Made by a program: the position numbers and the translations under genes. Below, one piece after another: positions 7,656 to 63,882 of a stretch of 64,000 nt of DNA (the stretch's first letter is position 1; each line of letters begins with the position of its first letter). This stretch comes from Candidatus Saccharimonadota bacterium (GTDB taxonomy: Bacteria; Patescibacteriota; Saccharimonadia; Saccharimonadales; SLHW01): assembly GCA_024635455.1 (NCBI GenBank), contig JAGXIU010000002.1:44309-108308 (forward strand). Direction: 5' to 3'. The notes under the pieces are model-generated. The model was not told the origin of the DNA and ran no database searches. It saw nothing but the letters and a program-made list of their open reading frames with translations.

Positions 7656-8219
7656 CTAACGACGCGCATCACGAATTATATCGCGGTACTCTGGAATTTG
7701 CTCCTGAAACAATGTCATTACTGAACTTCTATCGCCAGCAAAGGTTCCATCTGAGCGCCCACAAGAACTGGTCCATGTTCGATGCACCACTTCATCATCA
7801 ACCCGTATCTCAAAAACAAAACGGCGACCAGATGGGCAAACACCATCCTCAGTTTCTATAGCACTTTGTCGCGTCTCGGTAGCATTGTTAGAATCTAGCG
7901 AATATAAAAGCGCTTTATATGCACTAGTAGTATTTGGAAGCCGCACTTGCTCTTCGATAGTTAAATCATAGCCACGCAGTACATCTAATGTGCGTTGTTG
8001 GGCGCTTACTGTTACACGGACTGCCTCAAATTCTTCGTTGGCAACAATGCGACCATATTCAGTAAAGGTAACCTCAGAATTCTGATCAAGATATGATGCA
8101 GCTAACGATGAGTCGGTACTAAGCTCAGACGGTGTATCACGAGAAGCAAGGCCAATAATACCAGCAATAAAGCCAGCGACAATGATTACCAAAATTGCTC
8201 CGCCAATAATGTATTTCAT
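7656..8219 (-). CDS. hypothetical membrane-anchored protein
   Basis: 187 aa. It has an N-terminal TM segment (IIGGAILVIIVAGFIAGIIGL) and no family I recognise. Confidence 0.55.
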   Translation of the reverse strand: MKYIIGGAILVIIVAGFIAGIIGLASRDTPSELSTDSSLAASYLDQNSEVTFTEYGRIVANEEFEAVRVTVSAQQRTLDVLRGYDLTIEEQVRLPNTTSAYKALLYSLDSNNATETRQSAIETEDGVCPSGRRFVFEIRVDDEVVHRTWTSSCGRSDGTFAGDRSSVMTLFQEQIPEYRDIIRDARR

Positions 8220-11054: not shown

Positions 11055-12047
11055 CTACGATGCGCGGCGTCGATCAACCTCATAAGTTCGGCGTATTTTT
11101 TCAAGCGATCTTGCCTCTATTTGGCGGATTGCTTCACGCGTAAGGCCAAGTTGATCACCAACCTCTTGTAAAGTTTGAGGGGAGCCGTCAAGCAGACCAA
11201 AACGACGAATAATCACCTCTCTGTCACGTTTACGCAGCCTTCTAAGTCGATTATGCAAATCTTCACTTTCAGCTGCAGCCATCGCGACACTCTCAGGATT
11301 AGGTGCTGTTTCATCTTGGACTATGTCTGCTAATTGAGCGCCGCCTGAAGTATTGTCCTTATTTCTGTTCTTAATAGGTTGATCAAGTGAAGCAGAGCTA
11401 GCAAAGCGTGACTTACGAAGTTCGGTTTTCTCTATTTTTTCTTGTGAAAAACCAGTTGCTTCGACTAGCCGTGATGTAATTTCAGCCTTCGTCATATTAC
11501 CGTCATCTATCTTTTCATAGGCTGTGAGAATCTTGGTGGCGTCCTGCCTGAAATGAGTCGGGAAGCGCACTGGCTCTACAATACTGTTGTCAGGGCGCCC
11601 ACGCTGGATAGCCTGACGTATCCACCAGTTTGCATAGGTTGTAAAACGATAACCTTTGGTTGGTTCAAACTTATCAACAGCCCGCTTGAGCCCCATATTG
11701 CCCACCTGGACTACATCAGCCAACTCCTCAGTATCACTTTTATATTTATGCGCGAGATGAACCACTAGTCGAAGATTATGCATAAACAAGCTATCGAATG
11801 CAGACCTTCCGAGCTCCTTTATTGTGTCGATACGATCGGGGTCAACATTTATTGCCGAGCCCTTTTCTTCAACGGCTTGGGCAGCTTTTAGTTGTTTGCC
11901 AAGCGACGCTTCTTGCTCGGGGGTTAATAAATCATGCCTACCAGCTTGACTCATGTATTGTGTAACGCTATCTGTTACAGTTGAGTCTTGCTCGATTACA
12001 CCGTAATCAGTAGTCTGCTCGTGATCCAATTTTTCTGGATATATCAT
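11055..12047 (-). CDS. RNA polymerase sigma factor, sigma-70 family (second copy, non-primary)
   Basis: Region 2 is FTTYANWWIRQAIQR. Region 4 is TLQEVGDQLGLTREAIRQIEARSLEKIR. Confidence 0.85.
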   Translation of the reverse strand: MIYPEKLDHEQTTDYGVIEQDSTVTDSVTQYMSQAGRHDLLTPEQEASLGKQLKAAQAVEEKGSAINVDPDRIDTIKELGRSAFDSLFMHNLRLVVHLAHKYKSDTEELADVVQVGNMGLKRAVDKFEPTKGYRFTTYANWWIRQAIQRGRPDNSIVEPVRFPTHFRQDATKILTAYEKIDDGNMTKAEITSRLVEATGFSQEKIEKTELRKSRFASSASLDQPIKNRNKDNTSGGAQLADIVQDETAPNPESVAMAAAESEDLHNRLRRLRKRDREVIIRRFGLLDGSPQTLQEVGDQLGLTREAIRQIEARSLEKIRRTYEVDRRRAS

Positions 12048-12120
12048 TGAATTATATTATCAAAATCAATACTACATAAAAAGTACTTGTGCCTACTATA
12101 GACTGTTCTTATAGCAGACC

Positions 12121-12966
12121 CTACTGATGACGTCGCAGCTCTTGTGCGTTTCGGGCAATTTGGCCGAGGGCAGAAAACGGATTTTGGTGGCTCGAGGTCG
12201 GTTCTTGACCAGAGCCAAGTGGAAAGGTGTCAGATATAACGTAAAGGTTTTCACCATTGGCGTCAAAACCATCGTGTCTTGCTTGCAACGCTCGCCGCGC
12301 CTGCCCCGCGTTTTGCACCCAAGCACCTGCGTTCGATGCAACCAAGACGCTGTCTTTTGACCCGATGTGATTGGCTGCCACTGCCATTACTTCATCACCT
12401 ATCGATGAGTTGACACGCACAAGCTCTACACGAACGCCGGCATCTTCCAATATGCCTCGAATAACGTTGTTAAAGTAATCGGCTTCGGTCATACCGGCTT
12501 CGACGTCATCACCTTCTTGTGGCTTCATTTCTCGATTGCCTGCTACCAAAAGCACGTCGGAAACTGCTCCTGATTCATTAGCCAACCGTTGGGCGCGGCG
12601 TTGCATCCAGTTGCGAACGCCACCAGTCACTAAAGCAACATCAATAGCAGCTTCACCTGACACAGTTTCTGAATTCATGTAAGACCTGTCGACGGGCAGG
12701 AGTAAACCAGAGCGCTCTACCCAACCTCGTGCAATTGTTACAGGATCATCGTTGGTTCCGATTTTTTCTTGCACGCCAGCTATGTTTTCTTGTAGTTCCT
12801 TTGATTGACCAACTGTACCAATAAGATTACCGAGATTTTGTACATCTGGTTCCTCGCTAAGCTCATGGTTGAACACTCGTGCCATTTCAGGTACTACTCC
12901 AGTTCCAATCTCATATACGCTGTGCGCTTCTGGGTTAAATGATTTAAATGTTATTTGTTCACTCAT
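12121..12966 (-). CDS. hypothetical protein
   Basis: 281 aa from MSEQITF. AAGGAG lies 9 nt upstream of ATG 12966. I recognise no family with confidence. Confidence 0.55.
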   Translation of the reverse strand: MSEQITFKSFNPEAHSVYEIGTGVVPEMARVFNHELSEEPDVQNLGNLIGTVGQSKELQENIAGVQEKIGTNDDPVTIARGWVERSGLLLPVDRSYMNSETVSGEAAIDVALVTGGVRNWMQRRAQRLANESGAVSDVLLVAGNREMKPQEGDDVEAGMTEADYFNNVIRGILEDAGVRVELVRVNSSIGDEVMAVAANHIGSKDSVLVASNAGAWVQNAGQARRALQARHDGFDANGENLYVISDTFPLGSGQEPTSSHQNPFSALGQIARNAQELRRHQ

Positions 12967-13211: not shown

Positions 13212-13817
13212 CTATTTAGCAATATCTTGTAATAACTGTTGGGCGTGTTTCTCGAATGTAGCAAAATCGTCATTGTTTTCTATGGTATCTGTGGCATTTT
13301 CTTTCACGTAGGCTACATCCATTTGAGCATCCTTGGGAATACTGAGCTTCGGGCGCCACTGTAATGCTTCGTGAGCAAGGAATGTATCCATGTCTATATT
13401 TTTCATCTCACCATCTCGAGAGAACCCGAGCGCGCGAGCATAGCGAATATCGTCACTCGCTTCTACCCATATAAGTCGGCCATGATGTGTACGTATAAAA
13501 TCTACTTCTGTCGGAGTGCGAATACTGTAGAGTACAAGTCCAGTGTATGAAGCCTCTTTCTTTGCTTCTTTATATGCTTCAATCGCTTTGCGCAATACCA
13601 CATCTGCGCCAAATTGTTGTCGTAGGTAATTTGCAGTCTCGGTCATGTTGGCTACCGATATTGGATTATCCTCATCAACATGCCGCTGCCGCGACTGCTC
13701 TCGCACGATATCTCCTAATGATACACCGAAATACCCTGCCTCAATAAACTGCTTGGCTAGGGTATCTTTGCCGCTACGAGGTAGACCAGCAATACCAACA
13801 ATATTCATTTCTGACAT
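13212..13817 (-). CDS. P-loop nucleoside/nucleotide kinase-like protein
   Basis: It has a Walker A-like GIAGLPRSGKDT motif at the N-terminus. At 201 aa, its size and layout resemble dNMP or dephospho-CoA kinase-like proteins. Confidence 0.6.
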   Translation of the reverse strand: MSEMNIVGIAGLPRSGKDTLAKQFIEAGYFGVSLGDIVREQSRQRHVDEDNPISVANMTETANYLRQQFGADVVLRKAIEAYKEAKKEASYTGLVLYSIRTPTEVDFIRTHHGRLIWVEASDDIRYARALGFSRDGEMKNIDMDTFLAHEALQWRPKLSIPKDAQMDVAYVKENATDTIENNDDFATFEKHAQQLLQDIAK

Positions 13818-52858: not shown

Positions 52859-53032
52859 TTATTCCGGTATAAAGCCGAGGAGTGTAAACATAAGTATAAA
52901 TACGACAATGCCGACAACTGCCGCACCGGTGACCGCAGACTGCGTGTTACCACCAGTCCGGCGATAAAATTTGCTATACACCCAAGCTGAAACACCAATA
53001 GCCATTAAAAATGCAATGATACCGTTTGACAT
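52859..53032 (-). CDS. possible 57-aa two-TM membrane protein (below the ORF-track cutoff)
   Basis: Hand translation gives MSNGIIAFLMAIGVSAWVYSKFYRRTGGNTQSAVTGAAVVGIVVFILMFTLLGFIPE. The ATG lies 9 nt after the HIT gene stop. There is no obvious SD. Confidence 0.4.
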   Translation of the reverse strand: MSNGIIAFLMAIGVSAWVYSKFYRRTGGNTQSAVTGAAVVGIVVFILMFTLLGFIPE

Positions 53033-53041
53033 ATTCTTATT

Positions 53042-53437
53042 CTACTCGAATGCAAGAAGTTTCGCGAGTGCTTGGTTTTTTGCTGAGTTTACAGGTTGTG
53101 ATTCATCTGGTTGCTCCCGAAATTCAGCTAATGTATTGAAGCCAATTACATGCACGTGTACGTGTGGAACGTCTAAGCCAATAACCTGTAGACCAACTCG
53201 CTTTGGCTGTACTTTCTCGTTTATTTTCTGGCCGATTTTTTGAACCGTGTCCATAACCGCCCGATAGTCGTCTTTTGATAAGTCTATGAATTGATCGACT
53301 TGTGTTTTTGGTATAACGAGGACGTGTGCTTGAGCAATTGGGTGTAGGGGGATAATAGCGATGGTTTTATCATCTTCATACACCTTGTCTGAGGGTAGCC
53401 CCCCTTTGATAATCTTTGTGAAAACTGATTCTTCCAT
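53042..53437 (-). CDS. HIT-family nucleotide hydrolase
   Basis: It has the histidine triad HVHVHVI and an N-terminal FTKIIKGGLPSDKVYEDD. The start is ATG 53437. Confidence 0.88.
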   Translation of the reverse strand: MEESVFTKIIKGGLPSDKVYEDDKTIAIIPLHPIAQAHVLVIPKTQVDQFIDLSKDDYRAVMDTVQKIGQKINEKVQPKRVGLQVIGLDVPHVHVHVIGFNTLAEFREQPDESQPVNSAKNQALAKLLAFE

Positions 53438-53486
53438 AGCTATATTGTACACAATTTCACTGATAAATTTCGTGTAGAATAAGCGT

Positions 53487-54497
53487 ATGCATGTTCTGAA
53501 AAATATACTGACAGCAATCACCGCACTGCTACTTCACCTAACGCTCCCGCTACTCGTGATTGCCAGTATCTTTACCCTCTTGTTTACTACGCCAGACACA
53601 ATTAAACAATCATTCCGTGAAGCAGATGTCTACCAGGCATTTGTCGACACAATTGCACATGAACTCACTGCGCAGACACAAACAGATGGTTCATCCGATA
53701 TACCACAAAAAGAAATGCGCAACGCTATAGAACAAGCGGTGACAGCAGAGGATGTCCAGACCCAGGCAGAGCAGGCAATTGATGGCGTATATGATTGGCT
53801 GAACGGTACGACCGAGCAGCCAGAATTCATGATTGATTTCGGTCCTGCCCGAGAACGATTTGCTGAGGAAATAGCCATGTTTGCAGCAGAACGGCTACAG
53901 TCACTACCGACCTGTACATCACTCGACCAGCTACAAGGAGAAATTGATCCGCTAACTACCGAGTGTTTGCCGCCGGGTTTTGACCCCATCGAAAAAACGT
54001 CTACCTATGCAGATGAGTTACTCGCCTCAGATGACTTTATTCCAGATGTACAAATTTCATCTACTGAATTGCTCGATGACATCGAGGACGATGATCAGAT
54101 ATCGACGATTCCAGAGGGCTTTGAGTGGTTAATGCGTAGTATATGGATTATATCTACTGCAATCGTTGTGCTAGCGCTCGGGCTGTTTGCACTCGCTCCG
54201 TCAAAGCAAGTTGGCGTCCGGCGAGTCGGCATGCAATTCTTTATAGCTGGATTATGGCTTGGTCTATCGACGCTGATCGTGTGGATTCTGCAAGATGGGC
54301 TATTTAAAGAAAATGCGGCGGCGGCTGAGATCCAAAATGCCCTTGCTAGGGCAGGAGAGCTGCTCGTTGGCGATATATTGTTAATAATGGCCGTTGGCGC
54401 AGGTATATACGTTCTGCTTGGATTATCGCTCCGCTATGGCTTGGCCCCTCGATTGAAGGCGGAGGAGCCTGCGGTAGATAAGACCGGGCGGGCATAG
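53487..54497 (+). CDS. hypothetical multi-TM membrane protein
   Basis: 336 aa. It has an N-terminal TM segment, an acidic central region and three C-terminal hydrophobic segments. Confidence 0.55.
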   Translation: MHVLKNILTAITALLLHLTLPLLVIASIFTLLFTTPDTIKQSFREADVYQAFVDTIAHELTAQTQTDGSSDIPQKEMRNAIEQAVTAEDVQTQAEQAIDGVYDWLNGTTEQPEFMIDFGPARERFAEEIAMFAAERLQSLPTCTSLDQLQGEIDPLTTECLPPGFDPIEKTSTYADELLASDDFIPDVQISSTELLDDIEDDDQISTIPEGFEWLMRSIWIISTAIVVLALGLFALAPSKQVGVRRVGMQFFIAGLWLGLSTLIVWILQDGLFKENAAAAEIQNALARAGELLVGDILLIMAVGAGIYVLLGLSLRYGLAPRLKAEEPAVDKTGRA

Positions 54498-54564
54498 TTT
54501 ATATATTTATGAGAGGTTCGACGAAAGCTTACTTCACTCAAGCTTAATCATGGCAAGTTGTTTG

Positions 54565-54991
54565 TCGGAGAGAGGGATGAACACTCAATGATAGACCGTC
54601 AGCTCGTGTTGTTTATATTCGAGAGGGATATCGGCTTCGCCTCTTCCGTTCAGGCTTACTCGAAGCAACCGTTCTTCACTAAAGCTACGAATAGCTTGGC
54701 TTCTGCGTGAGCCTTCGCTCCACCGAACGCCTCGGTACGTATTTTTTAGAAAAAAATACCCTCGGGCTTGAAGCCCTCTATCAAATAAAAAAGACCGACT
54801 AAAGCCAGTCTTCTTTATTTGGCGGAGAGAGAGGGATGAACACTCGATGATAGACTGCACGTTCCGTGCATTCCATCATCTCGCTATTTGTCGTCAAGTG
54901 GTAACTTGACAACAATCGAACCTGAGAACCGAATTCCTGCTTTCACTGGCGAGAAAGCTAAACCCGAGCACAAGGCTCGGGTCTATCTTCC
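54565..54991 (-). repeat. tRNA-Ser(CGA) trailer: conserved unit plus two further copies of the tRNA 3' end
   Basis: The 18-nt tRNA 3' end (54992..55009) recurs exactly at 54820..54837 and in degenerate form at 54565..54597. 54781..54991 is the inverted partner of 59081..59291. Confidence 0.85.
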
Positions 54992-55083
54992 TGGCGGAGA
55001 GAGAGGGATTCGAACCCTCGGTACCGATTGCTCGGTACAGCTGTTTTCGAGACAGCCCAGTTCAGCCACTCCTGCACCTCTCC
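54992..55083 (-). tRNA. tRNA-Ser(CGA), class II, CCA encoded
   Basis: The hand-folded cloverleaf has acceptor GGAGAGG/TCTCTCC, anticodon stem GCTGT/ACAGC with loop CTCGAAA, a long variable arm GTACCGA-gcaa-TCGGTAC, and T arm GAGGG-TTCGAAT-CCCTC. Confidence 0.9.
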
Positions 55084-55125
55084 ATACCTAAAATATGCTA
55101 TCACATACTATCAGCTCATCAGTAC

Positions 55126-55656
55126 TTAGGCAGACCCGTCATTTGGTATGCACGATAACAACACTACGCCACCGATAAATGAACCACGGGCCTTTCTTTT
55201 TTCTAATCGAACGTCCTCAATCTTATGAATTGACACACCGACTGCCTCAGATAAACCATATACACACTCCAGCAACCCAGCAAGTTTTTCGAGGCGCTCG
55301 CTGCTGCTTGGGCTTGCCGCTAGCTCTGCGTGCAACAGATTAAAACGCTCATTCAGAGCGTCCGCAGAAGCGCCCTCGAGGCCCATGACTGGACGTTGCT
55401 TTCTTTGGGTTCTTTGAAGGTGCTGCTCGGTATAATCATCGAGTACAGTAAAGCTATACAAAACTTCGGATATATCACTGAGCTCTTCGGTTTTGCATTC
55501 AAGCCTTTCTGCTTCGTTGTATTCAGCATATTCTTCGATTATTTTTTCTAGCAAGAGACCTCTGTGCTCGGTCTGACTAGAAACATTTCGCCACTCCGGT
55601 GATCGACCGTCGTTAGCGAGTATAATTTCTGGTATATTGTCGCGTACAAGCTTCAT
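55126..55656 (-). CDS. MazG-like nucleoside triphosphate pyrophosphohydrolase family protein
   Basis: MKLVRDNIPEII...LLEKIIEEYAEYNEA...EELSDISEVLY resembles the KLVRDKIPEII MazG-like family. Confidence 0.6.
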   Translation of the reverse strand: MKLVRDNIPEIILANDGRSPEWRNVSSQTEHRGLLLEKIIEEYAEYNEAERLECKTEELSDISEVLYSFTVLDDYTEQHLQRTQRKQRPVMGLEGASADALNERFNLLHAELAASPSSSERLEKLAGLLECVYGLSEAVGVSIHKIEDVRLEKRKARGSFIGGVVLLSCIPNDGSA

Positions 55657-55814
55657 AGCATCAATTGTATGTTAAATCTGATGAAGAAAGTATACCTCGA
55701 AGTTGCAGGATAGACACAAGCAAAAACAAGCAGTTTAACTTACGGTCGTAGACTCAAACCACTGGAGTATATATGCAACAAAAAAGCCCGAGACAAAAGC
55801 TCATACCTTTTTAT

Positions 55815-55828
55815 TGGTACACCCGGCA
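55815..55828 (-). repeat. isolated 14-nt copy of the tRNA-Arg 3' end (att-like)
   Basis: tggtacacccggca is identical to 57645..57658, in the same orientation. Confidence 0.6.
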
Positions 55829-56002
55829 AGGACGAGTTGGGAACAAATTAAAGCGGAACTGATTGAAATTGGGCAACAGGTTAAAAAGAACCGAGGAACA
55901 AACTTCTTGTAGTCTAAGCGACAATAACTAAACCACGTCAATGAGTTATGTGAAAAGCCAGTAACACCTTTAGAGCTGTTGACAGCTTGCTTGTATTATG
56001 AT

Positions 56003-57181
56003 ATGATGTCGCTTATGTCAGTACAGCACGAAATGATGCCGCTTTTGGATCCTAGAGAAGTTAATCCACCGCCTTCGGAAAGGGTTCTTGCGCCAGATGA
56101 ACAGGTTCAGATTGACCTTGATGCTCCCCTTGCTGACAGTCAAGAAGTGCACGATAGGTTGGGTATACGAAGTAACTTAGTTGCTACCGTAAACGCTGGT
56201 AGTAAGAGCTTTTTAATTGTTGACTCTCGTAATACTCGCAGCAATAGGGATTTCTTTATTTCAGATGAAACCTTTTCAAAAGAAAACAGAATAGGATTCA
56301 AAGGTGTACTGGAAGACGAGCCAGTAGTCATAGGTCGTGGTCATCACACAGATAGATTCTCTTACCCAGCTACTGTTTCTAGAGAGCATTTTGAAGTTTC
56401 ATACACCGATGAAGCGTTATTTATTCGCAATCTACGACCAACTAACAAAACCACTGTAACGGCTCATTTAGCCTTAGAGCAGCAACACCAAGGGGTTTCC
56501 CCTCGTTACGCCGTTGAAGATATACGCACAATCCTAGTAGAAGACAGACTGCAAGCACACCCCGACTTTGACGAAAAAGATGAAACAGCCCCATACGGGT
56601 ACTATATGAATCACCAAATCTTAGGTAGAGCGTCTAAGTCAGTAGACGGCGGAGTATATTTGGGTGGTTCAGCTCGTGAAGCAATAGTAGTTGACGGCAA
56701 ATCCGTAGCTATGAAGCAGGTATATGAAGGTGTTGCAACAGAGTTGCGACAATCATTCCAAAAAAATGAAACTTTGCCAATGCAGTCTATCTTATTGAAG
56801 GTAATGCACAGAGTTCAAGAAGTGATGCCGTATGACGGTAGAAAAACAGAAGATATTAGCCGACAGCACCATGGTGATAAATTAGTCGGGCTTAGTACAT
56901 ATGTTAAAGAACGAGTTGGTGTTTGTAGACATCAAGGCTTATTGGCCGCCTACATTATTGAAAACCTTATTAAAGACGGTCATATGCTTGGAATAGTAGG
57001 TGTTGAACGTAATACTGTTAAAGATATGGGTGGAACGCACGCTTGGGCCGTTTACAAAACTAGCAGTAATGAAGCCGAAGAAGTAATTGTTGTTGACCCA
57101 GCTCAATCATTTGTCGGCACCAAAGCACAAGCACAGCGCGAAGGTCGGTGGGAATACCGCTTGACCACTGACAAATACTAG
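56003..57181 (+). CDS. FHA-domain protein with a C-terminal transglutaminase/papain-like Cys-His-Asp core
   Basis: The FHA region is VIGRGHHTDRF...VSREHFEV...LFIRNLRPTNKTTV. The C-terminal candidate triad is GVCRHQG, GTHAWAV and VVDPA. The first in-frame ATG is 56003; the ORF opens at TTG 55979. Confidence 0.65.
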   Translation: MMSLMSVQHEMMPLLDPREVNPPPSERVLAPDEQVQIDLDAPLADSQEVHDRLGIRSNLVATVNAGSKSFLIVDSRNTRSNRDFFISDETFSKENRIGFKGVLEDEPVVIGRGHHTDRFSYPATVSREHFEVSYTDEALFIRNLRPTNKTTVTAHLALEQQHQGVSPRYAVEDIRTILVEDRLQAHPDFDEKDETAPYGYYMNHQILGRASKSVDGGVYLGGSAREAIVVDGKSVAMKQVYEGVATELRQSFQKNETLPMQSILLKVMHRVQEVMPYDGRKTEDISRQHHGDKLVGLSTYVKERVGVCRHQGLLAAYIIENLIKDGHMLGIVGVERNTVKDMGGTHAWAVYKTSSNEAEEVIVVDPAQSFVGTKAQAQREGRWEYRLTTDKY

Positions 57182-57454
57182 TCTTAGTTTCTAAACTACT
57201 ACTGAAGCAAAAAAATGAGAGCTGTTATTGCTAAAACATAAAGAGCAAATTATTGACGAAGTTATGCAGCTCATTAACCAGCCAGACGAGTTACGGAACC
57301 AAGCTATCCTCAAGATACAGAAGGCTATCCAATGGTTAGTATTTCCGAACGGACTTGAGTGTGACTTCGGAACTGGTTTTTGAAACCAGTCCACTAAGCC
57401 AAACTCATCTGTTAATTTAAGAACTTGATAAAAAATTACCTGAAAATGCAAATT

Positions 57455-57505
57455 TGGTACACCCCTGCCCGATGTGATACATCGTATCAGGCGGGCGGCA
57501 GGATT
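57455..57505 (-). pseudogene. tRNA-Arg 3' stump split by a 32-nt insertion
   Basis: The minus-sense read is AATCCTGCCG-[CCCGCCTGATACGATGTATCACATCGGGCAGG]-GGTGTACCA, compared with the intact AATCCTGCCGGGTGTACCA. Confidence 0.8.
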
Positions 57506-57611
57506 ATCGCACACAATTGCTAAAGCATTTGCTCGGCCAAGCAAGGAAAACATAATGTGCCACCGGCACATTATGCCTACGGTCGCAGGTTCAAGCCAAC
57601 GACCTACCACG

Positions 57612-57638
57612 CAAAAACCCGACCAAAATGGTCGGGCC
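57612..57638 (-). terminator. rho-independent terminator after tRNA-Arg
   Basis: The minus-sense read is GGCCCGACC-atttt-GGTCGGG-TTTTT. It starts 7 nt after the CCA. Confidence 0.8.
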
Positions 57639-57644
57639 TTAGCG

Positions 57645-57721
57645 TGGTACACCCGGCAGGATTTGAACCTACGACCTTCTGTACCGCAAACAGACGCTCT
57701 ATCCAGCTGAGCTACGGGTGC
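57645..57721 (-). tRNA. tRNA-Arg(GCG), CCA encoded
   Basis: The hand fold is GCACCCG TA GCTC AGCTGGATA GAGC G TCTGT TTGCGGT ACAGA AGGTC GTAGG TTCAAAT CCTGC CGGGTGT A CCA. The anticodon loop TTGCGGT gives GCG. Confidence 0.85.
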
Positions 57722-57730
57722 TTAATTTAT

Positions 57731-57973
57731 CTATTGTATTCTTGTGAAAAGTACTTTTCTAGCATTACCACTCTTTTTTACCTGACTTTCTCTTTTTCGT
57801 GCTAGCCCTAACTCTCGGTATGCTTCGTAATAAATCAACTCTATGGGTAATCTTGATTTTGTAGAAGCAACCTTACCATCTTGATGCTCTTTCAGTCTAC
57901 GCTTCAAATTTGATGTTGAACCGTAATAAAACTTATTGTCGGCACAAGAGTGCAGAATATAAAAATAGTACAT
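57731..57973 (-). CDS. small GIY-YIG (URI-domain) nuclease family protein
   Basis: 80 aa, with YYFYILHS...KFYYGSTSNLKRRLKEH...E...E motifs. Its stop lies 9 nt upstream of tRNA-Arg. Confidence 0.8.
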   Translation of the reverse strand: MYYFYILHSCADNKFYYGSTSNLKRRLKEHQDGKVASTKSRLPIELIYYEAYRELGLARKRESQVKKSGNARKVLFTRIQ

Positions 57974-57980
57974 TTATTAA

Positions 57981-57988
57981 ATTATACA
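57981..57988 (-). promoter_or_regulatory. extended -10 (TGTATAAT) directly upstream of the GIY-YIG ATG; likely a leaderless or near-leaderless transcript
   Basis: The minus-sense read is aaaaaaTGTATAATttaataaATG. Confidence 0.5.
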
Positions 57989-58000
57989 TTTTTTAATGTT

Positions 58001-58051
58001 CCAGCTGACCCGCCTGATACGATGTATCACATCGGGCAGGGCTACGGGTGC
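58001..58051 (-). pseudogene. tRNA-Arg 5' stump split by the inverted copy of the same 32-nt sequence
   Basis: The minus-sense read is GCACCCGTAGC-[CCTGCCCGATGTGATACATCGTATCAGGCGGG]-TCAGCTGGA, compared with the intact GCACCCGTAGCTCAGCTGGA. Confidence 0.8.
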
Positions 58052-58137
58052 ATATATGTGTAACGCGTAAATGATCGAGCTTTTGCCTCATGGGCAAACG
58101 GAGCAGGGGAAACTATAGCATATAACAGAGGTTATTA

Positions 58138-58698
58138 CTAGAAACGTATTTTACGCATCAAGTTATCAATAGCGTCAGGGTCGCTATCCTCCATCGGTAA
58201 ATAATCAGAAATGGCTTCGATGATTTGATCCTCCTGATCAGGGGGGTAATATACGCGCAACTCAGTGGTAAAACGCTTTATTGGTAGCAAAAATATAGAT
58301 GATATGGCGCCTTCGTCATGTACAGCAAAAGACTTGAATGAGTCGAACTCGTATAGCCTACCGCTTACATCAATGCCGCTCGGTGTTATCTCATACTGCC
58401 GAACTTCTGGTTTACGTGTAGCCAACACCCCGAAAGATGCGCCAGCAATCAAAACTACGATAAGTGATATAGCATCACGCGTTAGCAGATAAACAAGCAC
58501 AGACAATAAAGCGAGGCCAATCCCAAACGATACATACCAGGAAAGACTTTTGTGGTGCGCGATAAATTCAGAGGCAGACCAGCTTACCAGGCTCCCTCTT
58601 GGTTCAGGGGATACCTGTTGAGCATCTTGGCTGTTAGAGTTCTTTCTAGTAATCTGGGCTTCAAGTTGTTCGATTGTCGGCTCTTGCTGATCCTGCAT
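58138..58698 (-). CDS. hypothetical two-TM membrane protein
   Basis: 186 aa. It has two adjacent TM segments (WYVSFGIGLALLSVLVYLL and ISLIVVLIAGASFGVLA) and a soluble C-terminal domain. Confidence 0.55.
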   Translation of the reverse strand: MQDQQEPTIEQLEAQITRKNSNSQDAQQVSPEPRGSLVSWSASEFIAHHKSLSWYVSFGIGLALLSVLVYLLTRDAISLIVVLIAGASFGVLATRKPEVRQYEITPSGIDVSGRLYEFDSFKSFAVHDEGAISSIFLLPIKRFTTELRVYYPPDQEDQIIEAISDYLPMEDSDPDAIDNLMRKIRF

Positions 58699-58767
58699 GT
58701 GCTTATTGTACCTGAAGATAGCACTACATAGAAAGTACTCAGAGCTATTAGTCGCGTTGCGTGGAAT

Positions 58768-58780
58768 TATTTGCTATAAT
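58768..58780 (+). promoter_or_regulatory. putative tRNA promoter -10 block tatttgcTATAAT
   Basis: The same 13-mer occurs upstream of tRNA-Ser(TGA) at 59466..59478. Confidence 0.55.
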
Positions 58781-58821
58781 CTTCATCTGTTACAGTCTAA
58801 GCTAGTCATAGATTGTGACGA

Positions 58822-58914
58822 GGAGAGGTACCCAAGTGGCTGAAGGGGCGGCTTTGCTAAAGCTGTAGGGGGGCGCAAGCTCCCGCGAGGGTTCGAATCC
58901 CTCCCTCTCCGCCA
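58822..58914 (+). tRNA. tRNA-Ser(GCT), class II, CCA encoded
   Basis: The acceptor is GGAGAGG/CCTCTCC. The anticodon stem is CGGCT/AGCTG with loop TTGCTAA. It has a long variable arm and T arm GAGGG-TTCGAAT-CCCTC. Confidence 0.9.
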
Positions 58915-58917
58915 GGA

Positions 58918-58958
58918 GAGAAGCGGTCATATCTTTATGGTATGGCCGTTTCTCTTTT
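58918..58958 (+). terminator. rho-independent terminator after tRNA-Ser(GCT)
   Basis: The hairpin is gagaagcggtcata-tctttatgg-tatggccgtttctc, followed by tttt. Confidence 0.7.
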
Positions 58959-59080
58959 GGAGAAAGGATGCGAACCCGTATCCGCTGGAAGTGGAAGGGT
59001 TCGGTGACACAAGCTGACGCGCAGATGCTTGCATCGAGCATCAGTGCAGTGGCAACGATGTCATCCCTCCCTCTCCGCCA
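58959..59080 (+). repeat. type-A trailer unit ending in an exact second copy of the tRNA-Ser(GCT) 3' end
   Basis: 58998..59062 matches 59650..59714 with 8 mismatches in ~66 nt. The 18-nt sequence atccctccctctccgcca sits at 59063..59080. Confidence 0.85.
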
Positions 59081-59291
59081 GGAAGATAGACCCGAGCCTT
59101 GTGCTCGGGTTTAGCTTTCTCGCCAGTGAAAGCAGGAATTCGGTTCTCAGGTTCGATTGTTGTCAAGTTAGTACTTGACGACAAATAGCGAGATGACGGA
59201 ATGCGCGGAACGTGCAGTCTATCATTGAGTGTTCATCCCTCCCTCTCCGCCAAATATAGAAGACTGGCTTTAGTCGGTCTTTTTTATTTGG
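59081..59291 (+). repeat. type-B trailer unit (hairpin-bearing left arm, third tRNA 3'-end copy, terminator); inverted partner of 54781..54991
   Basis: There are about 8-9 mismatches over ~211 nt against the reverse complement of 54781..54991. The core copy lies at 59235..59252. Confidence 0.9.
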
Positions 59292-59465
59292 CAGACAGGT
59301 TCGAACCCGATTTAAGCGAGCTGTGCGAGCGAGGGTTCGGCGGAGTGAGGTCACGCTCAGAAGCTCGCTTCGAGCATGGCCGAACGTAAAAGACGAAGAC
59401 AATATTCCTCTCTCTACGAGAAAGAAGTGATATGAGCGCTGCCTTCCTATTCTGAAATCAGTTTA

Positions 59466-59478
59466 TATTTGCTATAAT
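59466..59478 (+). promoter_or_regulatory. putative tRNA promoter -10 block tatttgcTATAAT
   Basis: It lies 11 nt upstream of the tRNA-Ser(TGA) 5' end and is identical to 58768..58780. Confidence 0.6.
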
Positions 59479-59489
59479 CACACTCTGTT

Positions 59490-59579
59490 GGAAGGGTGAC
59501 CGAGTGGTTTAAGGTACTTGTCTTGAAAACAAGCGTGCCGGAAACGGTACCGTGGGTTCGAATCCCACCCCTTCCGCCA
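59490..59579 (+). tRNA. tRNA-Ser(TGA), class II, CCA encoded
   Basis: The acceptor is GGAAGGG/CCCTTCC. The anticodon stem is CTTGT/ACAAG with loop CTTGAAA. It has a long variable arm and T arm GTGGG-TTCGAAT-CCCAC. Confidence 0.9.
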
Positions 59580-59732
59580 GGAAGGTAGACCCGAGCCTTG
59601 TGCTCGGGTTTAGCTTTCTCGCCAGAAAGTATGGAGTCGAGCCCGATGCGGTTCGGTGACACAAGCTGGCGCACAGAAGCTCGCTTCGAGCACCAGCGCA
59701 GTGGCAACAATGTCATCCCACCCCTTCCGCCA
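59580..59732 (+). repeat. compact trailer unit (B-type left arm + A-type right arm) ending in a second copy of the tRNA-Ser(TGA) 3' end
   Basis: The left-arm hairpin gacccgagccttgtgctcgggtttagctttctcgcc lies at 59588..59623. The core atcccaccccttccgcca at 59715..59732 is identical to 59562..59579. Confidence 0.85.
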
Positions 59733-59770
59733 AACAAAATGAATCTACCTTGTGTAGGTTCTTTTTGTTT
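59733..59770 (+). terminator. rho-independent terminator closing the tRNA-Ser(TGA) trailer
   Basis: The hairpin is gaatctac-cttgt-gtaggttc, followed by tttttg. Confidence 0.7.
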
Positions 59771-59858
59771 GAGGGGTGATTCGAGCCCACGGGCGACAGC
59801 TACTGCTGCCGTTGAGCCGTGTATAAACCCGACAATCTATAGTGTGTCGGGTTTATAT

Positions 59859-60539
59859 TTAGTCTTTTTGGCAGAATACACTAGCGTATACGTTTTTATA
59901 ACCTGCTCGACGCAGCTCTTTTGTTGCTGCTATCAACGTGCCGCCTGTAGTCGTCACGTCATCGACCAGCACTATTGGAGTGTCTTTATGTTTGCCCGCT
60001 GCAGTACCAGCTAAGAACGCCCCTTCTAGTTGCTGCAAACGAGTCGCTCGGGTTGCCCCGACTTGGCGTACATTACTAAGGCGTCGGAGCAGGGGATGGT
60101 AGCTCCTACTAATATTATTCGCTAGGGACCTAGCGATAAGTTGCGCCTGGTCATACCCCCGCTGACGAATCCGGCTCGGGGCAGTTGGTATGTGCGTAAT
60201 AATGGTTTCCTTGGGTAGATAAGGCATTGACTCCGCCATGAGTGATGCAATGACGGTTACTGACGCCCGCTTGCGGGAGAACTTCATGCCTTCGATCAAT
60301 TTCTTGGGTACACCCGTGTACAAACTTGTCACCCACACTTGTTTAGGTGGGCTATATCGTTTTACGCACCGTGCGCACGTAATCGTACTGTCGCCCTGAG
60401 CCTTACAAAGAAAACAACGCTCAGGTATCGGCTCACGGACATCAGGCAAACACCAATGACAAACGATACTACCTATGCGACCACAAACGGTGCAATGGTG
60501 TGGAGCGATTTGTGCTATCAAGAGTTCTACTACGTGCAT
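59859..60539 (-). CDS. comFC: ComF-family phosphoribosyltransferase (ComFC-like)
   Basis: It has N-terminal Cys clusters (CTVCGRIGSIVCHWC and CFLCKAQGDSTITCARC) and the PRT motif IVLVDDVTTTGGTL. The start is ATG 60539. Confidence 0.82.
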   Translation of the reverse strand: MHVVELLIAQIAPHHCTVCGRIGSIVCHWCLPDVREPIPERCFLCKAQGDSTITCARCVKRYSPPKQVWVTSLYTGVPKKLIEGMKFSRKRASVTVIASLMAESMPYLPKETIITHIPTAPSRIRQRGYDQAQLIARSLANNISRSYHPLLRRLSNVRQVGATRATRLQQLEGAFLAGTAAGKHKDTPIVLVDDVTTTGGTLIAATKELRRAGYKNVYASVFCQKD

Positions 60540-60667
60540 GTTGTTATTAGTACTGTTGTAAATATAGAGCCAAACTGTTGCCCTTATCTTATAATGTAAG
60601 CTATACTTGCTAGTAACAAAAATTGCAAACCTTAGAAAATAAATTCTACAAGTGGAGGGTAAGACGT

Positions 60668-61144
60668 ATGGCGCGCAAAAATCGCGATGAAGACCTATTG
60701 ATGGAAGATGAATTAACGGCAGCTTTTCTTGATGACGAAGAATTAGCGCCCGTAAATACATCATCTAATGATCAGCCGGCAGATGCAGGCAATGATGACT
60801 GGGATGAAGACGAGGCTGTACCAGGTCAACTTGCAGTTGACGTGTACGAGACCAAAGAACAGCTAATTGTTAAGGCGCGTACAGCTGGCGTCAACAAAGG
60901 CGAGCTTGATGTGAGCATTGCTGACAACACGCTCAGCATTCGAGGCACGCTCTCAGCCGGAACTGAGGACGGAGTAGAGAACTACTTTGTTCAGGAATGT
61001 TATTGGGGCGAGTTTAGTCGCAGTATCGCATTGCCAGTTCCAGTCAAAGAAGAAGAAATTGACGCAGTTCTTAAGGACGGTGTACTAACTATCAGCTTCA
61101 CTAAGGTTAAGCAAGACACGGTTAAAAAGATAGAAATCAAATAG
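60668..61144 (+). CDS. Hsp20/alpha-crystallin small heat-shock protein
   Basis: It has AVDVYETKEQLIVKARTAGVNKGELDVSIADNTLSIRG and LKDGVLTISFTKV. GGAGGG lies upstream of ATG 60668. Confidence 0.88.
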   Translation: MARKNRDEDLLMEDELTAAFLDDEELAPVNTSSNDQPADAGNDDWDEDEAVPGQLAVDVYETKEQLIVKARTAGVNKGELDVSIADNTLSIRGTLSAGTEDGVENYFVQECYWGEFSRSIALPVPVKEEEIDAVLKDGVLTISFTKVKQDTVKKIEIK

Positions 61145-61294: not shown

Positions 61295-61705
61295 CTATAG
61301 GTCAGTAGCAGTCGTTAATACGAACCGAACGATAACCTGAGCAAGTGCAACTACGACTAGGCCAATAATGGCGTAGAGGATGGTGTTCTTGGCGCCTGTT
61401 ACGTTACCTGAGTCACCGCCCGAAGTTATGTACTTAAGGCCACCAATGATGATCATGATGACAGATATAACACCTACAACGAGGGAAAATACATTGATCG
61501 TTGTGGTAATGATGCCTTCGACGCGTTCTTCTGGGTTATCGCCGCCCTCTGGATCTGTAGCTGTTGCCCCAGAATCGAGATTTCCAGAAATACCTCCGTC
61601 AGGGTTAATAAGCTGTGCTTCAGCAGGACTAACCAACACTAAGGGTGCAACGACTCCTGCGATGAGCACCATCTGTAGTGCAATTGATTTTAGAGATTTA
61701 AACAT
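61295..61705 (-). CDS. VirB2/TrbC-like (T4SS pilin-like) small membrane protein, paralog 1
   Basis: It has a signal-like N-terminus ending AEAQ. The C-terminal module is VVGVISVIMIIIGGLKYITSGGDSGNVTGAKNTILYAIIGLVVVALAQVIV. Confidence 0.7.
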   Translation of the reverse strand: MFKSLKSIALQMVLIAGVVAPLVLVSPAEAQLINPDGGISGNLDSGATATDPEGGDNPEERVEGIITTTINVFSLVVGVISVIMIIIGGLKYITSGGDSGNVTGAKNTILYAIIGLVVVALAQVIVRFVLTTATDL

Positions 61706-61773
61706 TTGAATTATTTTCCTTTCTTACCTGTTATTTATACACCGATAGTTATCTTTGGTCAAGATTGTACTGT

Positions 61774-62190
61774 CTAAACAGTATCGATTACAAACAATAC
61801 TATTACCTGAGCGAGGGCTACTATAGCAAGGCCAATGACAGCATACAGAATGGTGTTCTTAGCGCTGGTTATATTGGAAGGGTCACCGCTTGACATAATG
61901 TACTTCAGGCCACCAATAATAATCATAATGACGGCTATAACACCGACAACAACGGAGAATATATCAATTGCCGTCTGTATTGCGCCGTAGAGGTCACCCT
62001 CTGCATCACCTGGAGGGTTCGGATCTGTTAGACAGGCCCCAAGTGCTGGACCTGTAAGCCCGCCACAGTGGCTATTTGCAAACACGTGTTGCGTCGGAGC
62101 GAATGCTACAAGTGCAAACAAAAGCGCACCAGTGATTAATATTGCCTTGATGATTGTTTCTTTTTGAATAGTGTATAATTTTTCGAGCAT
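61774..62190 (-). CDS. VirB2/TrbC-like small membrane protein, paralog 2
   Basis: The C-terminal module is VVGVIAVIMIIIGGLKYIMSSGDPSNITSAKNTILYAVIGLAIVALAQVIV. The variable region has two Cys. Confidence 0.7.
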   Translation of the reverse strand: MLEKLYTIQKETIIKAILITGALLFALVAFAPTQHVFANSHCGGLTGPALGACLTDPNPPGDAEGDLYGAIQTAIDIFSVVVGVIAVIMIIIGGLKYIMSSGDPSNITSAKNTILYAVIGLAIVALAQVIVLFVIDTV

Positions 62191-62204
62191 TTTTTTCCTT
62201 ATAT

Positions 62205-62618
62205 TTATATGGTTTCTATCACAAACAATACAATAGCTCGTGCAAAAACTGCAACTCCGATACCAATTAATGCATAGATTATGGTGCTTCGTGCACTTGC
62301 TAGCTTAGCCGAGTCTCCCGTTGATAACATGTACTTTACGGCGCCGACAATCAACATAAAAACTGCAATGACGCCGATTCCAATCAGCAATATGTCAATT
62401 ACCTCTACTACGAAATCAGTCACGCCGCTATCTTGTGCCGTATCGCCGCTCGTATCATCATTACTCTTACAGACTTCAGGGATATTACTTCCGGTATAGG
62501 ACGAGCATGATGGATCGAGCACTGATTGCGCACTAATCGGAGTAGCTAATAAGAGCAACAATGACATGGTAATAACGGCCATAGCCCGAAGGGCAGTCTC
62601 AAGTTTATGCACTACCAT
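62205..62618 (-). CDS. VirB2/TrbC-like small membrane protein, paralog 3
   Basis: The module is IGVIAVFMLIVGAVKYMLSTGDSAKLASARSTIIYALIGIGVAVFA. ATG 62618 lies 4 nt after the stop of paralog 4. The variable region has two Cys. Confidence 0.68.
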   Translation of the reverse strand: MVVHKLETALRAMAVITMSLLLLLATPISAQSVLDPSCSSYTGSNIPEVCKSNDDTSGDTAQDSGVTDFVVEVIDILLIGIGVIAVFMLIVGAVKYMLSTGDSAKLASARSTIIYALIGIGVAVFARAIVLFVIETI

Positions 62619-62622
62619 GCCC

Positions 62623-62919
62623 TTAAGTGCTCCCAATAACAAAATTAACAATCGTCCAGGCACTTATAGATATGGCTAGCCCTATGACTGACCATAATAT
62701 AGTCTTTTTGGCGCGCGCAACCCTTTGTGGGTCACCGCCTGACAATGTATACCAGTAGCCTCCAACAATGACCATAATGACTGATATAATCCCTACTGCT
62801 ATAAATACAAACTCCGTAACCGAAGCAAGCTGATCGCTACCGAGACTACCATCTTTATTTGGATGCTCAATATCATCAAAAACACCACTGATTTGTGAAA
62901 ATATTGTAAGAAGCTTCAT
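62623..62919 (-). CDS. VirB2/TrbC-like small membrane protein, paralog 4 (short, no clear signal peptide)
   Basis: The module is VGIISVIMVIVGGYWYTLSGGDPQRVARAKKTILWSVIGLAISISA. Confidence 0.62.
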   Translation of the reverse strand: MKLLTIFSQISGVFDDIEHPNKDGSLGSDQLASVTEFVFIAVGIISVIMVIVGGYWYTLSGGDPQRVARAKKTILWSVIGLAISISAWTIVNFVIGST

Positions 62920-62924
62920 AATTA

Positions 62925-63359
62925 TTACGCCAACAAAATGTTCGTCACTATGTTAACTATAGCCACCGCAAATACCGCTAACACCAGGCCAACCAAGCCA
63001 TTAATAATAGTCTTTCTGGCGTTGCTCAATTGCTCTGGTTGCCCTTGACTCATACTGAACAGTATACCACCGTATATAACGTATCCCACAGCTACGATGC
63101 CGGCTATACGAAGTAGTATTTCTATAGCCGCGAACAAAATTGCTGAAACAGTAGCTCCTATGTCAACTGATTCATCTTTTTGTGGCAAAGAAATACTGCA
63201 ATCATCAGCCACATCAAGATATTCATACCACGTCGGGAATCCCAAGAAGCTTGATGAGCCATCATAATCCTTACAGTGATTATCGGCGTGTACTGTACCT
63301 GGCGATACCATAGTGAATATACCGACCACCGCAAATAAAAGTGCCGTAAACTTTATCAC
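62925..63359 (-). CDS. VirB2/TrbC-like small membrane protein, paralog 5
   Basis: The module is AGIVAVGYVIYGGILFSMSQGQPEQLSNARKTIINGLVGLVLAVFA. GTG 63359 has GGGAGGGG 9 nt upstream. The variable region has two Cys. Confidence 0.65.
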   Translation of the reverse strand: MIKFTALLFAVVGIFTMVSPGTVHADNHCKDYDGSSSFLGFPTWYEYLDVADDCSISLPQKDESVDIGATVSAILFAAIEILLRIAGIVAVGYVIYGGILFSMSQGQPEQLSNARKTIINGLVGLVLAVFAVAIVNIVTNILLA

Positions 63360-63360
63360 C

Positions 63361-63882
63361 CTACAGAACCCCTCCCGGCACAAGCCATTGCAAGAACGCG
63401 AACAAGAAAATATATATAACTAACGCCGAAATAGCTTGCGTAATCCGTTTTTTAGCGGCAGCAACTGCTTGAGGGTTTGAGCCTGCTGACGAGTATTGAA
63501 TTCCGCCGATAACAATCATCATAACAACGACAATCCCAAATATAACGGCTAATGCATCTGTAAAAATTTTTAAATAAGCGATGATTCCACAGGTCTCGGG
63601 GTTAATGTCATCAGTCTCGCAATCAGCTTTGATATCAGGTCTCAGGCCAGATGACGTCTCTTGAGCTCCTCCTGGATTTTGAAGAGCATGCTCACGACAA
63701 AGCTCTCTATCACCTGGGTCAGAAATACGATCACATTCTGCCGCCGTCCTACCGTGGTCAGCTTGCACATAAACGGGGCTCGATAAAGAAAGCAACAGGG
63801 CCCCGAATACAGCAATAACTAACGCTAAAATAAAAGATTTTTGCGCATACCGCCTGTTGCGTAAATTGTTTTGCATTTTCAT
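63361..63882 (-). CDS. VirB2/TrbC-like small membrane protein, paralog 6
   Basis: The module is FGIVVVMMIVIGGIQYSSAGSNPQAVAAAKKRITQAISALVIYIF. It has a signal/TM N-terminus and four Cys in the variable region. Confidence 0.65.
   Translation of the reverse strand: MKMQNNLRNRRYAQKSFILALVIAVFGALLLSLSSPVYVQADHGRTAAECDRISDPGDRELCREHALQNPGGAQETSSGLRPDIKADCETDDINPETCGIIAYLKIFTDALAVIFGIVVVMMIVIGGIQYSSAGSNPQAVAAAKKRITQAISALVIYIFLFAFLQWLVPGGVL

Follow-up and report, generated by a model that had tools for sequence, protein, structure and literature searches.

The tRNA genes and the copies of their 3' ends

The DNA analysed here, called the window throughout, is a stretch of 64,000 nucleotides (nt) from a Candidatus Saccharimonadota bacterium (contig JAGXIU010000002.1), and all coordinates without a locus label are positions within these 64 kb. 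ARAGORN and Rfam called four tRNA genes in it, which lie together inside 5 kb. Behind them, on the tRNA strand, we found modules (units) of 120-170 nt that end in a copy of the local tRNA from position 59 to position 76, CCA included. The tRNA genes are:

58822-58914, + strand: tRNA-Ser(GCT) gene, with encoded CCA
59490-59579, + strand: tRNA-Ser(TGA) gene
54992-55083, - strand: tRNA-Ser(CGA) gene
57645-57721, - strand: tRNA-Arg(GCG) gene

A promoter-like sequence of repeat family D11, TTGCTATAAT, is placed about 40 nt 5' of the tRNA-Ser(GCT) gene.

A search of the window with the degenerate 18-mer ATCCCNCYCYYTCCGCCA gave seven matches, starting at 58897, 59063, 59235, 59562, 59715, 54992 and 54820, against 0.04 in shuffled sequences. 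A sequence-only reading that preceded this analysis had placed extra copies at 59063 and 59235 behind tRNA-Ser(GCT), at 59715 behind tRNA-Ser(TGA) and at 54820 behind tRNA-Ser(CGA), and all of these coordinates were exact. It had also seen a degenerate third copy at the CGA locus, where we found, at 54575-54596, one of the three copies of the B-type end motif GTCTATCATYGAGTGTTCATCC, which is absent from the shuffles. The start of the so-called right arm, GGTTCGGTGACACAAGCTG, occurs twice (0.01 in shuffles). As a background, only 2 of 235 tRNAs from 130 unrelated loci were followed, at up to 1 kb, by a 16-nt stretch identical to their 3' end. In the window every tRNA-Ser gene is followed by units, as had been claimed, but many relatives lack them; and the serine copies are real, but the phenomenon is not confined to tRNA-Ser, as the tRNA-Arg gene also has a module with its own 3' end.

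Architecture of the modules

Read on the tRNA strand, a module consists of a hairpin, a purine-rich segment, a tRNA-derived piece, an insert and the 18-nt copy. Most units begin with a terminator-like hairpin, which in units B and C is the "left arm" of the sequence-only reading. The hairpin that had been described in this arm, GACCCGAGCCTTGTGCTCGGGTTTAGC, is real and present in three exact copies (none in shuffles), but it resembles a terminator hairpin; its GGA... start, said to be a near-copy of the tRNA 5' end, resembles the 5' end of the local tRNA in units A and C but not in unit B. The purine-rich segment is complementary to the first 7-10 nt of the copy (T-stem/acceptor strand) and varies with the tRNA type: GAGGGAT faces ATCCCTC, GGTGGGAT faces ATCCCACC and, in B units, GAGnGAT faces ATCnCTC. 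In one unit of a related genome (L011x677; L numbers denote loci outside the window) GGAGAAAG pairs with the mutated copy CTTTCTCC, and in some decayed units the pairing of this closing helix is weak. Where a unit abuts the CCA, pairing of its first bases with the free end of the copy is often possible (GGAGAG in unit A, GGAAGG in unit C, GGAGAGG in the GCT unit of L013); the B units of the window begin with GGAAGAT, which is TGA-like and not local.

The tRNA-derived piece ends in GGTTCG(A), and the insert, which is structured and 60-95 nt long, lies at T-loop position 58/59. The piece on the left side of the insert is of tRNA origin: in L018 it is exactly tRNA-Arg positions 47-58, with positions 60-75 on the right side, unit A of L003 retains the variable-arm apex GCGCAAGC, and in the GCT units the piece is GCGAGG. 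The match of this left flank to the local tRNA is mixed, being clear in the degenerate CGA unit, the Arg unit of L018 and the degenerate GCT unit, and not in all units. Of the earlier description of a T-loop split by an insert, the tRNA origin of the left piece stood, but the T-stem is not maintained. A real T-arm was rejected as a general feature, as the copy type does not covary with the five bases that precede TTCG (two of five pairs form in the TGA units, five of five in the Arg unit of L018).

The inserts belong to several families. R1 inserts end in ...GCAGTGGCAACGATGTC, R2 inserts end in ...CGGAAGAG followed by a hairpin and GAT or GCT, and B inserts are made of a long hairpin and a helix between GATGATGGA and TCTATCATC. 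The units of the window and their parts, with the scores of the covariance-model matches, are as follows:

58915-59080, + strand: unit A (hairpin, body and copy; model match 58995-59080, 97 bits)
58915-58958, + strand: terminator-like hairpin of unit A, GGAGAGAAGCGG...CCGTTTCTCTTTT
58959-59062, + strand: R1-type body of unit A
59063-59080, + strand: exact 18-nt tRNA 3'-end copy of unit A
59081-59252, + strand: unit B (left-arm hairpin, GGTTCGA, B-type insert of about 95 nt with three covarying helices, copy)
59235-59252, + strand: exact 18-nt copy of unit B
59253-59291, + strand: intrinsic terminator after unit B (stem 59258-59283)
59290-59421, + strand: degenerate R2-type unit of the GCT locus (74 bits), its end decayed to ATTCCTCTCTCTACG, without CCA
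59580-59732, + strand: unit C, a hybrid of a B-type left arm and an R1-type body (93 bits)
59715-59732, + strand: exact 18-nt copy of unit C
59733-59771, + strand: terminator after unit C
59773-59800, + strand: short unit fragment GGGGTGATTCGAGCCCACGGGCGACAGC
54820-54991, - strand: unit B', 94% identical to unit B
54820-54837, - strand: exact 18-nt copy of unit B', with the T variant as in the CGA tRNA
54782-54819, - strand: terminator of the CGA locus
about 54612-54781, - strand: degenerate R2-type unit of the CGA locus (52 bits), with a left flank, GTACCGAGG, specific to the CGA tRNA
54563-54596, - strand: B-end fragment with a decayed copy
57613-57640, - strand: terminator in the tRNA-Arg trailer
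57455-57612, - strand: tRNA-Arg unit, ending in the tRNA-Arg 3' end
55815-55828, - strand: further 14-nt tRNA-Arg 3'-end copy, TGCCGGGTGTACCA (repeat family D16)

The minimum-energy fold of unit C pairs its 5' GGAAGG with its 3' CCTTCC. A 32-nt hairpin insertion at 57465-57496 divides the copy in the tRNA-Arg unit into two parts, ATCCTGCC (57497-57504) and GGGTGTACCA (57455-57464), and the 14-nt copy at 55815-55828 is followed by a possible terminator-like T-rich stretch and then by a degenerate unit start. The covariance model of the R units matched the four R units in 64 kb and nothing else, and nhmmer placed the R body 19 times in the window and eight related loci, each time in a tRNA trailer and on the tRNA strand. 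That the units are common to several loci, as the sequence-only reading had noticed, is borne out by the R and B bodies found at different tRNAs and by unit B with its terminator, for which the GCT and CGA loci show 94% identity across 248 nt.

Other identities were considered and rejected. The open reading frames (ORFs) called at 54585-54860, 59201-59389 and 59598-60014 cover units whose alignments show 1-nt indels and compensatory changes and are not regarded as coding. The units are not tRNA genes or pseudogenes, as ARAGORN and the Rfam tRNA model call only the four true genes, nor known ribozymes or small RNAs (sRNAs), as the Rfam matches are noise. Matches of 26-28 bits (cut-off 70) to the proteobacterial sRNA family sX4 at 59482-59589 and at L011 176-325 overlap the tRNA itself; they take in tRNA-Ser(TGA) and the beginning of the left arm, probably because the sX4 family overlaps with tRNA-Ser.

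Agreement of the copies with the local tRNA

Position 66 of tRNA-Ser(GCT) is C or T depending on the genome, and the copies behind it carry the same base in five of five genomes, which agrees with the earlier observation that the core of the copy always matches the local isoacceptor. Units B and B' are nearly identical at the GCT and CGA loci, yet each copy bears the base of its own tRNA. Family B ends in 18-mers of the GCT, CGA or TGA type, and R2 units end in 18-mers of the Ser or Arg type. A fixed phage-type attachment site (attP) would not give one family of units different tRNA ends. Local ends require copying from the target, local homogenisation or selection for the match.

Conserved secondary structure

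The R-core model was built from 17 sequences and comprises two helices, of 5 bp and 2 bp, and a 4-bp hairpin whose loop is of the CUUG type. In it 90% of the cells are paired, against 29-40% when the partners are slid, and 9 of 11 pairs show changes on both sides, that is, compensatory ones; its covariation score was reached by none of 500 shuffles. Two double substitutions in the hairpin distinguish the orthologous R units found in the window and in L003. The B-type alignment has five sequences, and its structure was predicted from these same few, so that its figures lean in its favour: 94% of the cells are paired, against 36-42% with slid partners, and double changes occur in 15 pairs. In our own tally of the pair table about 34 G-U pairs stand against about 4 A-C mismatches for the B type, whose fold is also better on the sense strand (-62.2 kcal/mol) than on the antisense strand (-48.9 kcal/mol). 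Altogether compensatory substitutions affect at least five helices and include those between orthologous units of the window and L003. The two compensatory changes singled out by the sequence-only reading are real and belong to this wider pattern, and its suggestion of structured RNA finds support in the pairing and compensatory changes of both the R core and the B type.

Units in related genomes

The syntenic loci of about ten related genomes were fetched through homologues of the 186-aa protein adjoining tRNA-Ser(GCT). These Saccharibacteria loci have from none to at least four modules per tRNA:

L003 (Candidatus Saccharibacteria metagenome-assembled genome, MAG): one unit each behind TGA and GCT, none behind CGA
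L011: at least two units behind TGA, four behind GCT
L013: units behind TGA, Arg and CGA, a decayed one behind GCT
L010: only decayed units
L015 and L018: units behind Arg only
L019: a partial unit behind TGA
L020, L146 and L148: no units

The order of the units also changes, from A-B in the window to R-B-A-like in L011. In L011 the contig breaks off within a repeat of the TGA trailer unit that is identical to the first (1-76 and 229-318); tandem units therefore break short-read assemblies, and unit counts in MAGs are lower bounds. The tRNA-Arg unit of L013, homologous to the split one of the window, has an uninterrupted copy of 28 nt, and L003, L015 and L018 have Arg-type ends with one mismatch. 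Exact copies tend to adjoin the tRNA and decayed ones lie farther out. Between the window and L003 the units are 82-85% identical and the flanking proteins 52-55%, while the remaining intergenic DNA cannot be aligned; such unit identity points either to selection or to recent spread.

The units could in principle be neutral debris, that is, decaying partial duplications of tRNA and spacer that arose by slippage or unequal crossing-over and are functionless and immobile. The tRNA-derived pieces on the flanks of the insert agree with such an origin (the two Arg pieces of L018, the 28-nt copy of L013, the variable-arm apex of L003), as do the identical tandem unit at the contig end of L011, the 5' fragments of tRNA-Arg upstream of its gene in the window, L011 and L020, and the visible decay of many units. 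Nevertheless, we consider this origin improbable: it is contradicted by the compensatory substitutions in at least five helices and by the identity of the units where neutral intergenic DNA is unalignable. Moreover, the same insert families recur across tRNA loci and across genomes at a constant T-loop position, for which local duplication alone is insufficient.

In the same set of loci, L018 has at 13213-13235 a 23-nt exact copy of tRNA-Ser(CGA) positions 10-32, on the same strand, about 400 nt upstream of tRNA-Ser(CGA) and adjoining the unit of the tRNA-Arg trailer.

Comparison with the RtT repeats of Escherichia coli

The closest known parallel, which the sequence-only reading did not mention, is the RtT repeat. 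We compared the units with the tyrT-tyrV locus of E. coli K-12 (NC_000913.3, 1285500-1288000; L145), where the last 19 nt of tRNA-Tyr occur six times, in two genes and four units, and where the Rfam family RF00391 scores the four units at 133-138 bits. Helix P1 of RF00391 pairs GgGaaGGAU with AUCCuuCcC of the copy and leaves ccaCCACCA free. Set against tRNA-Tyr, an RtT unit consists of CTTCGAccAAGGTTCGA (positions ~44-58), an insert of about 67 nt and AATCC...CCA, and the annotated rttR is a 171-nt small RNA, a sense transcript, that ends at that CCA. The structure of RtT has covariation support (PMC7657543), and rtT RNA is described as a product of tyrT transcript processing that takes part in this processing and likely modulates the stringent response, its mode of action being unknown (10.1101/2024.07.17.603846).

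The Saccharibacteria units share with RtT a tandem position directly behind a tRNA on the same strand and an exact tRNA 3'-end copy with CCA that begins at T-loop 58/59 (19 nt in E. coli, 18 nt here). In both, a tRNA-derived piece precedes a structured insert (GGTTCG(A) here, CTTCGAccAAGGTTCGA in E. coli) and a purine-rich 5' segment (GGGGAAGGAU in E. coli) pairs with the copy in a closing helix of the P1 kind, which in E. coli leaves ...CCACCA free. RtT is one homogeneous family of 178 nt at one tRNA species, with the small tpr ORF in the repeat region, whereas here at least three insert families and hybrids occur at four tRNA genes (Ser three times, Arg) in a lineage of the candidate phyla radiation (CPR), and the units are set apart by terminator-like hairpins and have no conserved ORF. 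The architecture is the same in both, and the inserts differ. Homology of the inserts themselves is not supported: pairwise z-scores of 0.7-4.6 are weak, and the R model matches the GGUUCGG...AUCC..CCA flanks of RtT and skips its core.

Two observations concern RtT itself. One way to read an RtT unit is as the 3' third of tRNA-Tyr (CTTCGAccAAGGTTCGA...AATCCTTCCCCCACCACCA) carrying the insert at 58/59, a description that we did not find in the RtT literature examined. E. coli SK1144 (L144) has two tRNA-Tyr genes 33 nt apart and no unit between or behind them.

Other known RNAs resemble the units less completely. The 3' external transcribed spacer (3'ETS) of leuZ acts as an sRNA sponge in E. coli and is a tRNA trailer with a role of its own. 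Like it, the units may be by-products of tRNA operons freed by tRNA processing enzymes; unlike them, it is a single, unrepeated sequence that lacks a tRNA 3'-end copy. With tmRNA, YrlA and viral tRNA-like structures the units share an acceptor-like helix and a free NCCA recognisable by tRNA enzymes, but they have no maintained T-arm or D-arm. Rfam gave no tmRNA match in window 53000-61000 or in L011 1-1120, and its one weak YrlA match (16 bits, cut-off 69, E 3.5) lies over the tRNA-Ser(TGA) gene of L011 and not over a unit.

Proposed transcription and processing of the modules

We propose that the units are RtT-like tRNA trailer modules, co-transcribed mimics of tRNA ends that are processed like tRNAs and whose arrays are changed by recombination between repeats, an interpretation to which we give roughly an even chance. 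Read-through from the tRNA promoter past leaky hairpins would transcribe the modules, and each would fold compactly, closed by its 5' segments on the 18-nt copy with the NCCA left free. A module closed in this way would mimic an acceptor/T minihelix, and for that reason the tRNA maturation machinery would set its ends: RNase P would cut at the CCA/GGA junctions, and 3' trimming and CCA repair would complete the 3' end. The expected products are discrete CCA-ended RNAs of 120-170 nt, comparable to the 171-nt rtT RNA of E. coli. Between the 18-nt repeats, unequal recombination would lengthen, shorten and homogenise the arrays, and the shared hairpins and GGTTCG motif could let bodies pass between tRNA loci. 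As to function, a part in tRNA mimicry or in regulation is our guess.

Several points weigh against this proposal. Several units, which lack promoters of their own, stand after good intrinsic terminators and may therefore be transcribed at low levels. Distal units are decayed and many relatives have no units, and any function is therefore dispensable. Recombination at 18-nt repeats is inefficient for keeping copies identical, and the gain of the ends of different tRNAs by one family is left unexplained by the trailer-module model alone. Homology with RtT is unproven, and membership in RF00391 (gathering threshold 45 bits) was rejected, with no match in window 53000-61000 at E<=1 or in L011 1-1120 at E<=10. 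Finally, the R core has seven G-U pairs and six A-C mismatches, a balanced count, and its consensus folds slightly better as antisense (-17.8 kcal/mol) than as sense (-14.9 kcal/mol), so the strand of the R units is unsettled by sequence.

These last figures would agree with a functional antisense strand, in which the 18-nt complement of the tRNA 3' end comes first, like a retroviral primer-binding site, and which would be a tRNA-primed element or an antisense regulator of the tRNA. Positions 59-76 of a tRNA are the stretch that reverse transcriptase copies before it stops at the 1-methyladenosine of position 58 (m1A58), and the copies correspond exactly to these positions. Against this, the B units clearly favour the sense strand, the terminators and CCA/GGA junctions make sense on the tRNA strand, and the rtT RNA of E. 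coli is a sense transcript. In addition, the Pfam scan of window ORFs, reported as 42 and broken down as 41 of the 43 that reach 180 aa and two below that length, matched no integrase, transposase or reverse transcriptase. A functional antisense strand is thus very improbable.

The units are also of interest for RtT, which so far has been an isolated curiosity of enterobacterial tRNA-Tyr operons, without accepted function or origin. The same architecture in a distant, genome-reduced CPR lineage suggests a general class and not an accident of E. coli. Other tRNA species and several compensatorily evolving insert families provide comparative material on the role and spread of such modules, with tRNA mimicry, processing signals and regulation as the candidate roles to compare. 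On the practical side, the units break assemblies and cause spurious ORF calls in trailers, and should be annotated as non-coding RNA or repeat features.

Possible relation to mobile elements

The sequence-only reading had offered attachment (att) scars or miniature remnants of integrative elements as one explanation. The direct repeats, the variable number and order of the units and a gene-carrying segment of 1.6 kb fit it, but no integrase or parent element was found and the ends are those of different tRNAs. Similarly, the units share with att duplications and cis-mobilisable elements (CIMEs) direct repeats that run from T-loop to CCA, tandem accretion and strain-variable content, and differ from them in having 120-170 nt, no genes, several tRNA ends and helices that evolve by compensation. 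The flanking direct repeats are tRNA 3' ends, as in integrative elements, but one attP core per family was not found (GCT, CGA and TGA ends in B, Ser and Arg ends in R2). Compared with miniature inverted-repeat transposable elements (MITEs), the 5' segment repeats part of the 3' end in inverted orientation, like terminal inverted repeats; the 18-nt flanking repeat is atypical, and no parent insertion sequence was found.

The 1.6-kb segment (55829-57454) lies between two tRNA-Arg 3'-end copies and is absent from the syntenic L003. At 55979-57181 (+ strand) it encodes a 400-aa FHA-domain protein with no further family match in Pfam, PHROGs or NCBIfam, and it resembles a piece of cargo inserted at a repeat of the same kind. 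Recombinase genes exist in two of the relatives: L012 has a large serine recombinase gene at 2752-3816, about 220 nt downstream of a tRNA-Ser(CGA) that has no unit, and L010 has rve-type transposase genes at 6811-7779 and 11753-12576, near tRNA-Arg.

Searching representative genomes for the left-arm pattern yielded, among the matches listed, a single true relative, L003, the other matches (L001, L002, L004-L008), including the single metagenome match, being due to chance. BLAST of the units against 50,697 phage and 72,556 plasmid records gave no match. In viral contigs the left-arm pattern gave nothing and the R-core pattern only chance matches in GC-rich coding DNA. No autonomous relative with an integrase was thus seen in the window, the related loci or the phage, plasmid and viral collections, although absence from these is not proof. 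The 18-mer of tRNA-Ser(TGA), ATCCCACCCCTTCCGCCA, was found in more than 120 viral contigs (L024-L103), often less than 100 nt from the contig end. This fits its use for prophage attachment in many bacteria and shows only that it is a common attachment sequence in general; as a probe for viral relatives of the units it was rejected as too generic.

It is possible, if on the whole somewhat unlikely, that the units are non-autonomous mobile mini-elements, similar to CIMEs or MITEs and site-specific for the tRNA 3' end or T-loop, with their enzyme, a recombinase or reverse transcriptase, encoded elsewhere in the genome. Insertion would duplicate or bring the last 18 nt, new insertions would adjoin the tRNA while older units are pushed outward and decay, and the RNA-like structure would serve the mobility of the element itself. 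Accordingly placed are the exact copies near the tRNA and the decayed ones at a distance; every unit lies between direct repeats, the boundary is constantly at T-loop 58/59, and unit number and order vary in syntenic relatives (L015, L146 and L148 have none for Ser). The same bodies stand at Ser(GCT), Ser(CGA), Ser(TGA) and Arg with local ends, as copying from the target gives. The FHA-gene segment between tRNA-Arg 3'-end copies, missing in L003, the frequency of the TGA-type 18-mer as a boundary sequence in viral contigs, the serine recombinase beside tRNA-Ser(CGA) in L012 and the rve transposases near tRNA-Arg in L010 can be added to this side.

Nevertheless, neither integrase nor reverse transcriptase was found among the scanned window ORFs and none lies inside or beside any unit, and no full-length relative turned up in the genome, metagenome, viral, phage and plasmid searches. 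A tyrosine integrase with a fixed attP cannot give one family three or four tRNA ends, both sides of a unit bear the local C or T and not one each as from a crossover, and the L012 recombinase is at a tRNA without a unit. To our knowledge, the E. coli counterpart RtT has never been tied to an integrase. The mini-element explanation accounts better than the trailer-module interpretation for turnover, decay with distance, local ends and the constant 58/59 junction, and the two are not mutually exclusive.

A broader and rather improbable conjecture is that RtT-type modules are a widespread, unrecognised class of small structured elements that colonise tRNA 3' ends by inserting at 58/59 and copying the last 18 nt of whichever tRNA they meet, E. 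coli RtT and the Saccharibacteria units being two lineages of one mobile RNA-like element. The mechanism could be an unknown recombinase or could be RNA-mediated, by template switching or tRNA priming, because the copied stretch is exactly what reverse transcriptase copies before the m1A58 stop.

Genomic context and minor features

The window is ordinary chromosome with a GC content of 45%, and encodes valyl- and arginyl-tRNA synthetases (ValRS, ArgRS), GroEL, sigma factors, DnaG, TsaD, a ComF-like protein and Hsp20. A run of small ORFs at 61295-63882 (- strand) matches the arrays of type IV secretion system (T4SS) pilin genes (PF18895) of relatives; in L010, L013, L015, L018, L019 and L148, five to eight paralogous small genes of this family adjoin the Hsp20/ComF/tRNA cluster. 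The region of about 61320-61499 aligns with three places in L003.

A 32-nt imperfect palindrome, CCCGCCTGATACGATGTATCACATCGGGCAGG, is found at 57465-57496 (- strand) and at 58009-58040 (+ strand), in opposite orientations and with 100% identity across 33 nt. It has no target duplication and resembles a tiny hairpin insertion element; one copy interrupts the tRNA-Arg 3'-end copy mentioned above and the other a 5'-end fragment of tRNA-Arg. Three genomes have such partial copies of the tRNA-Arg 5' end, which cover positions 1-19/20 and reach as far as the D-loop, at distances of about 110-290 nt upstream of the intact gene: at 58001-58008 and 58041-58051 (- strand) in the window, at L011 1987-1999 and at L020 6142-6160. 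In L011 and L020 the fragment comes directly after the promoter, and next to it stands an inverted CCAGCTG; the arrangement mirrors that of the 3' copies.

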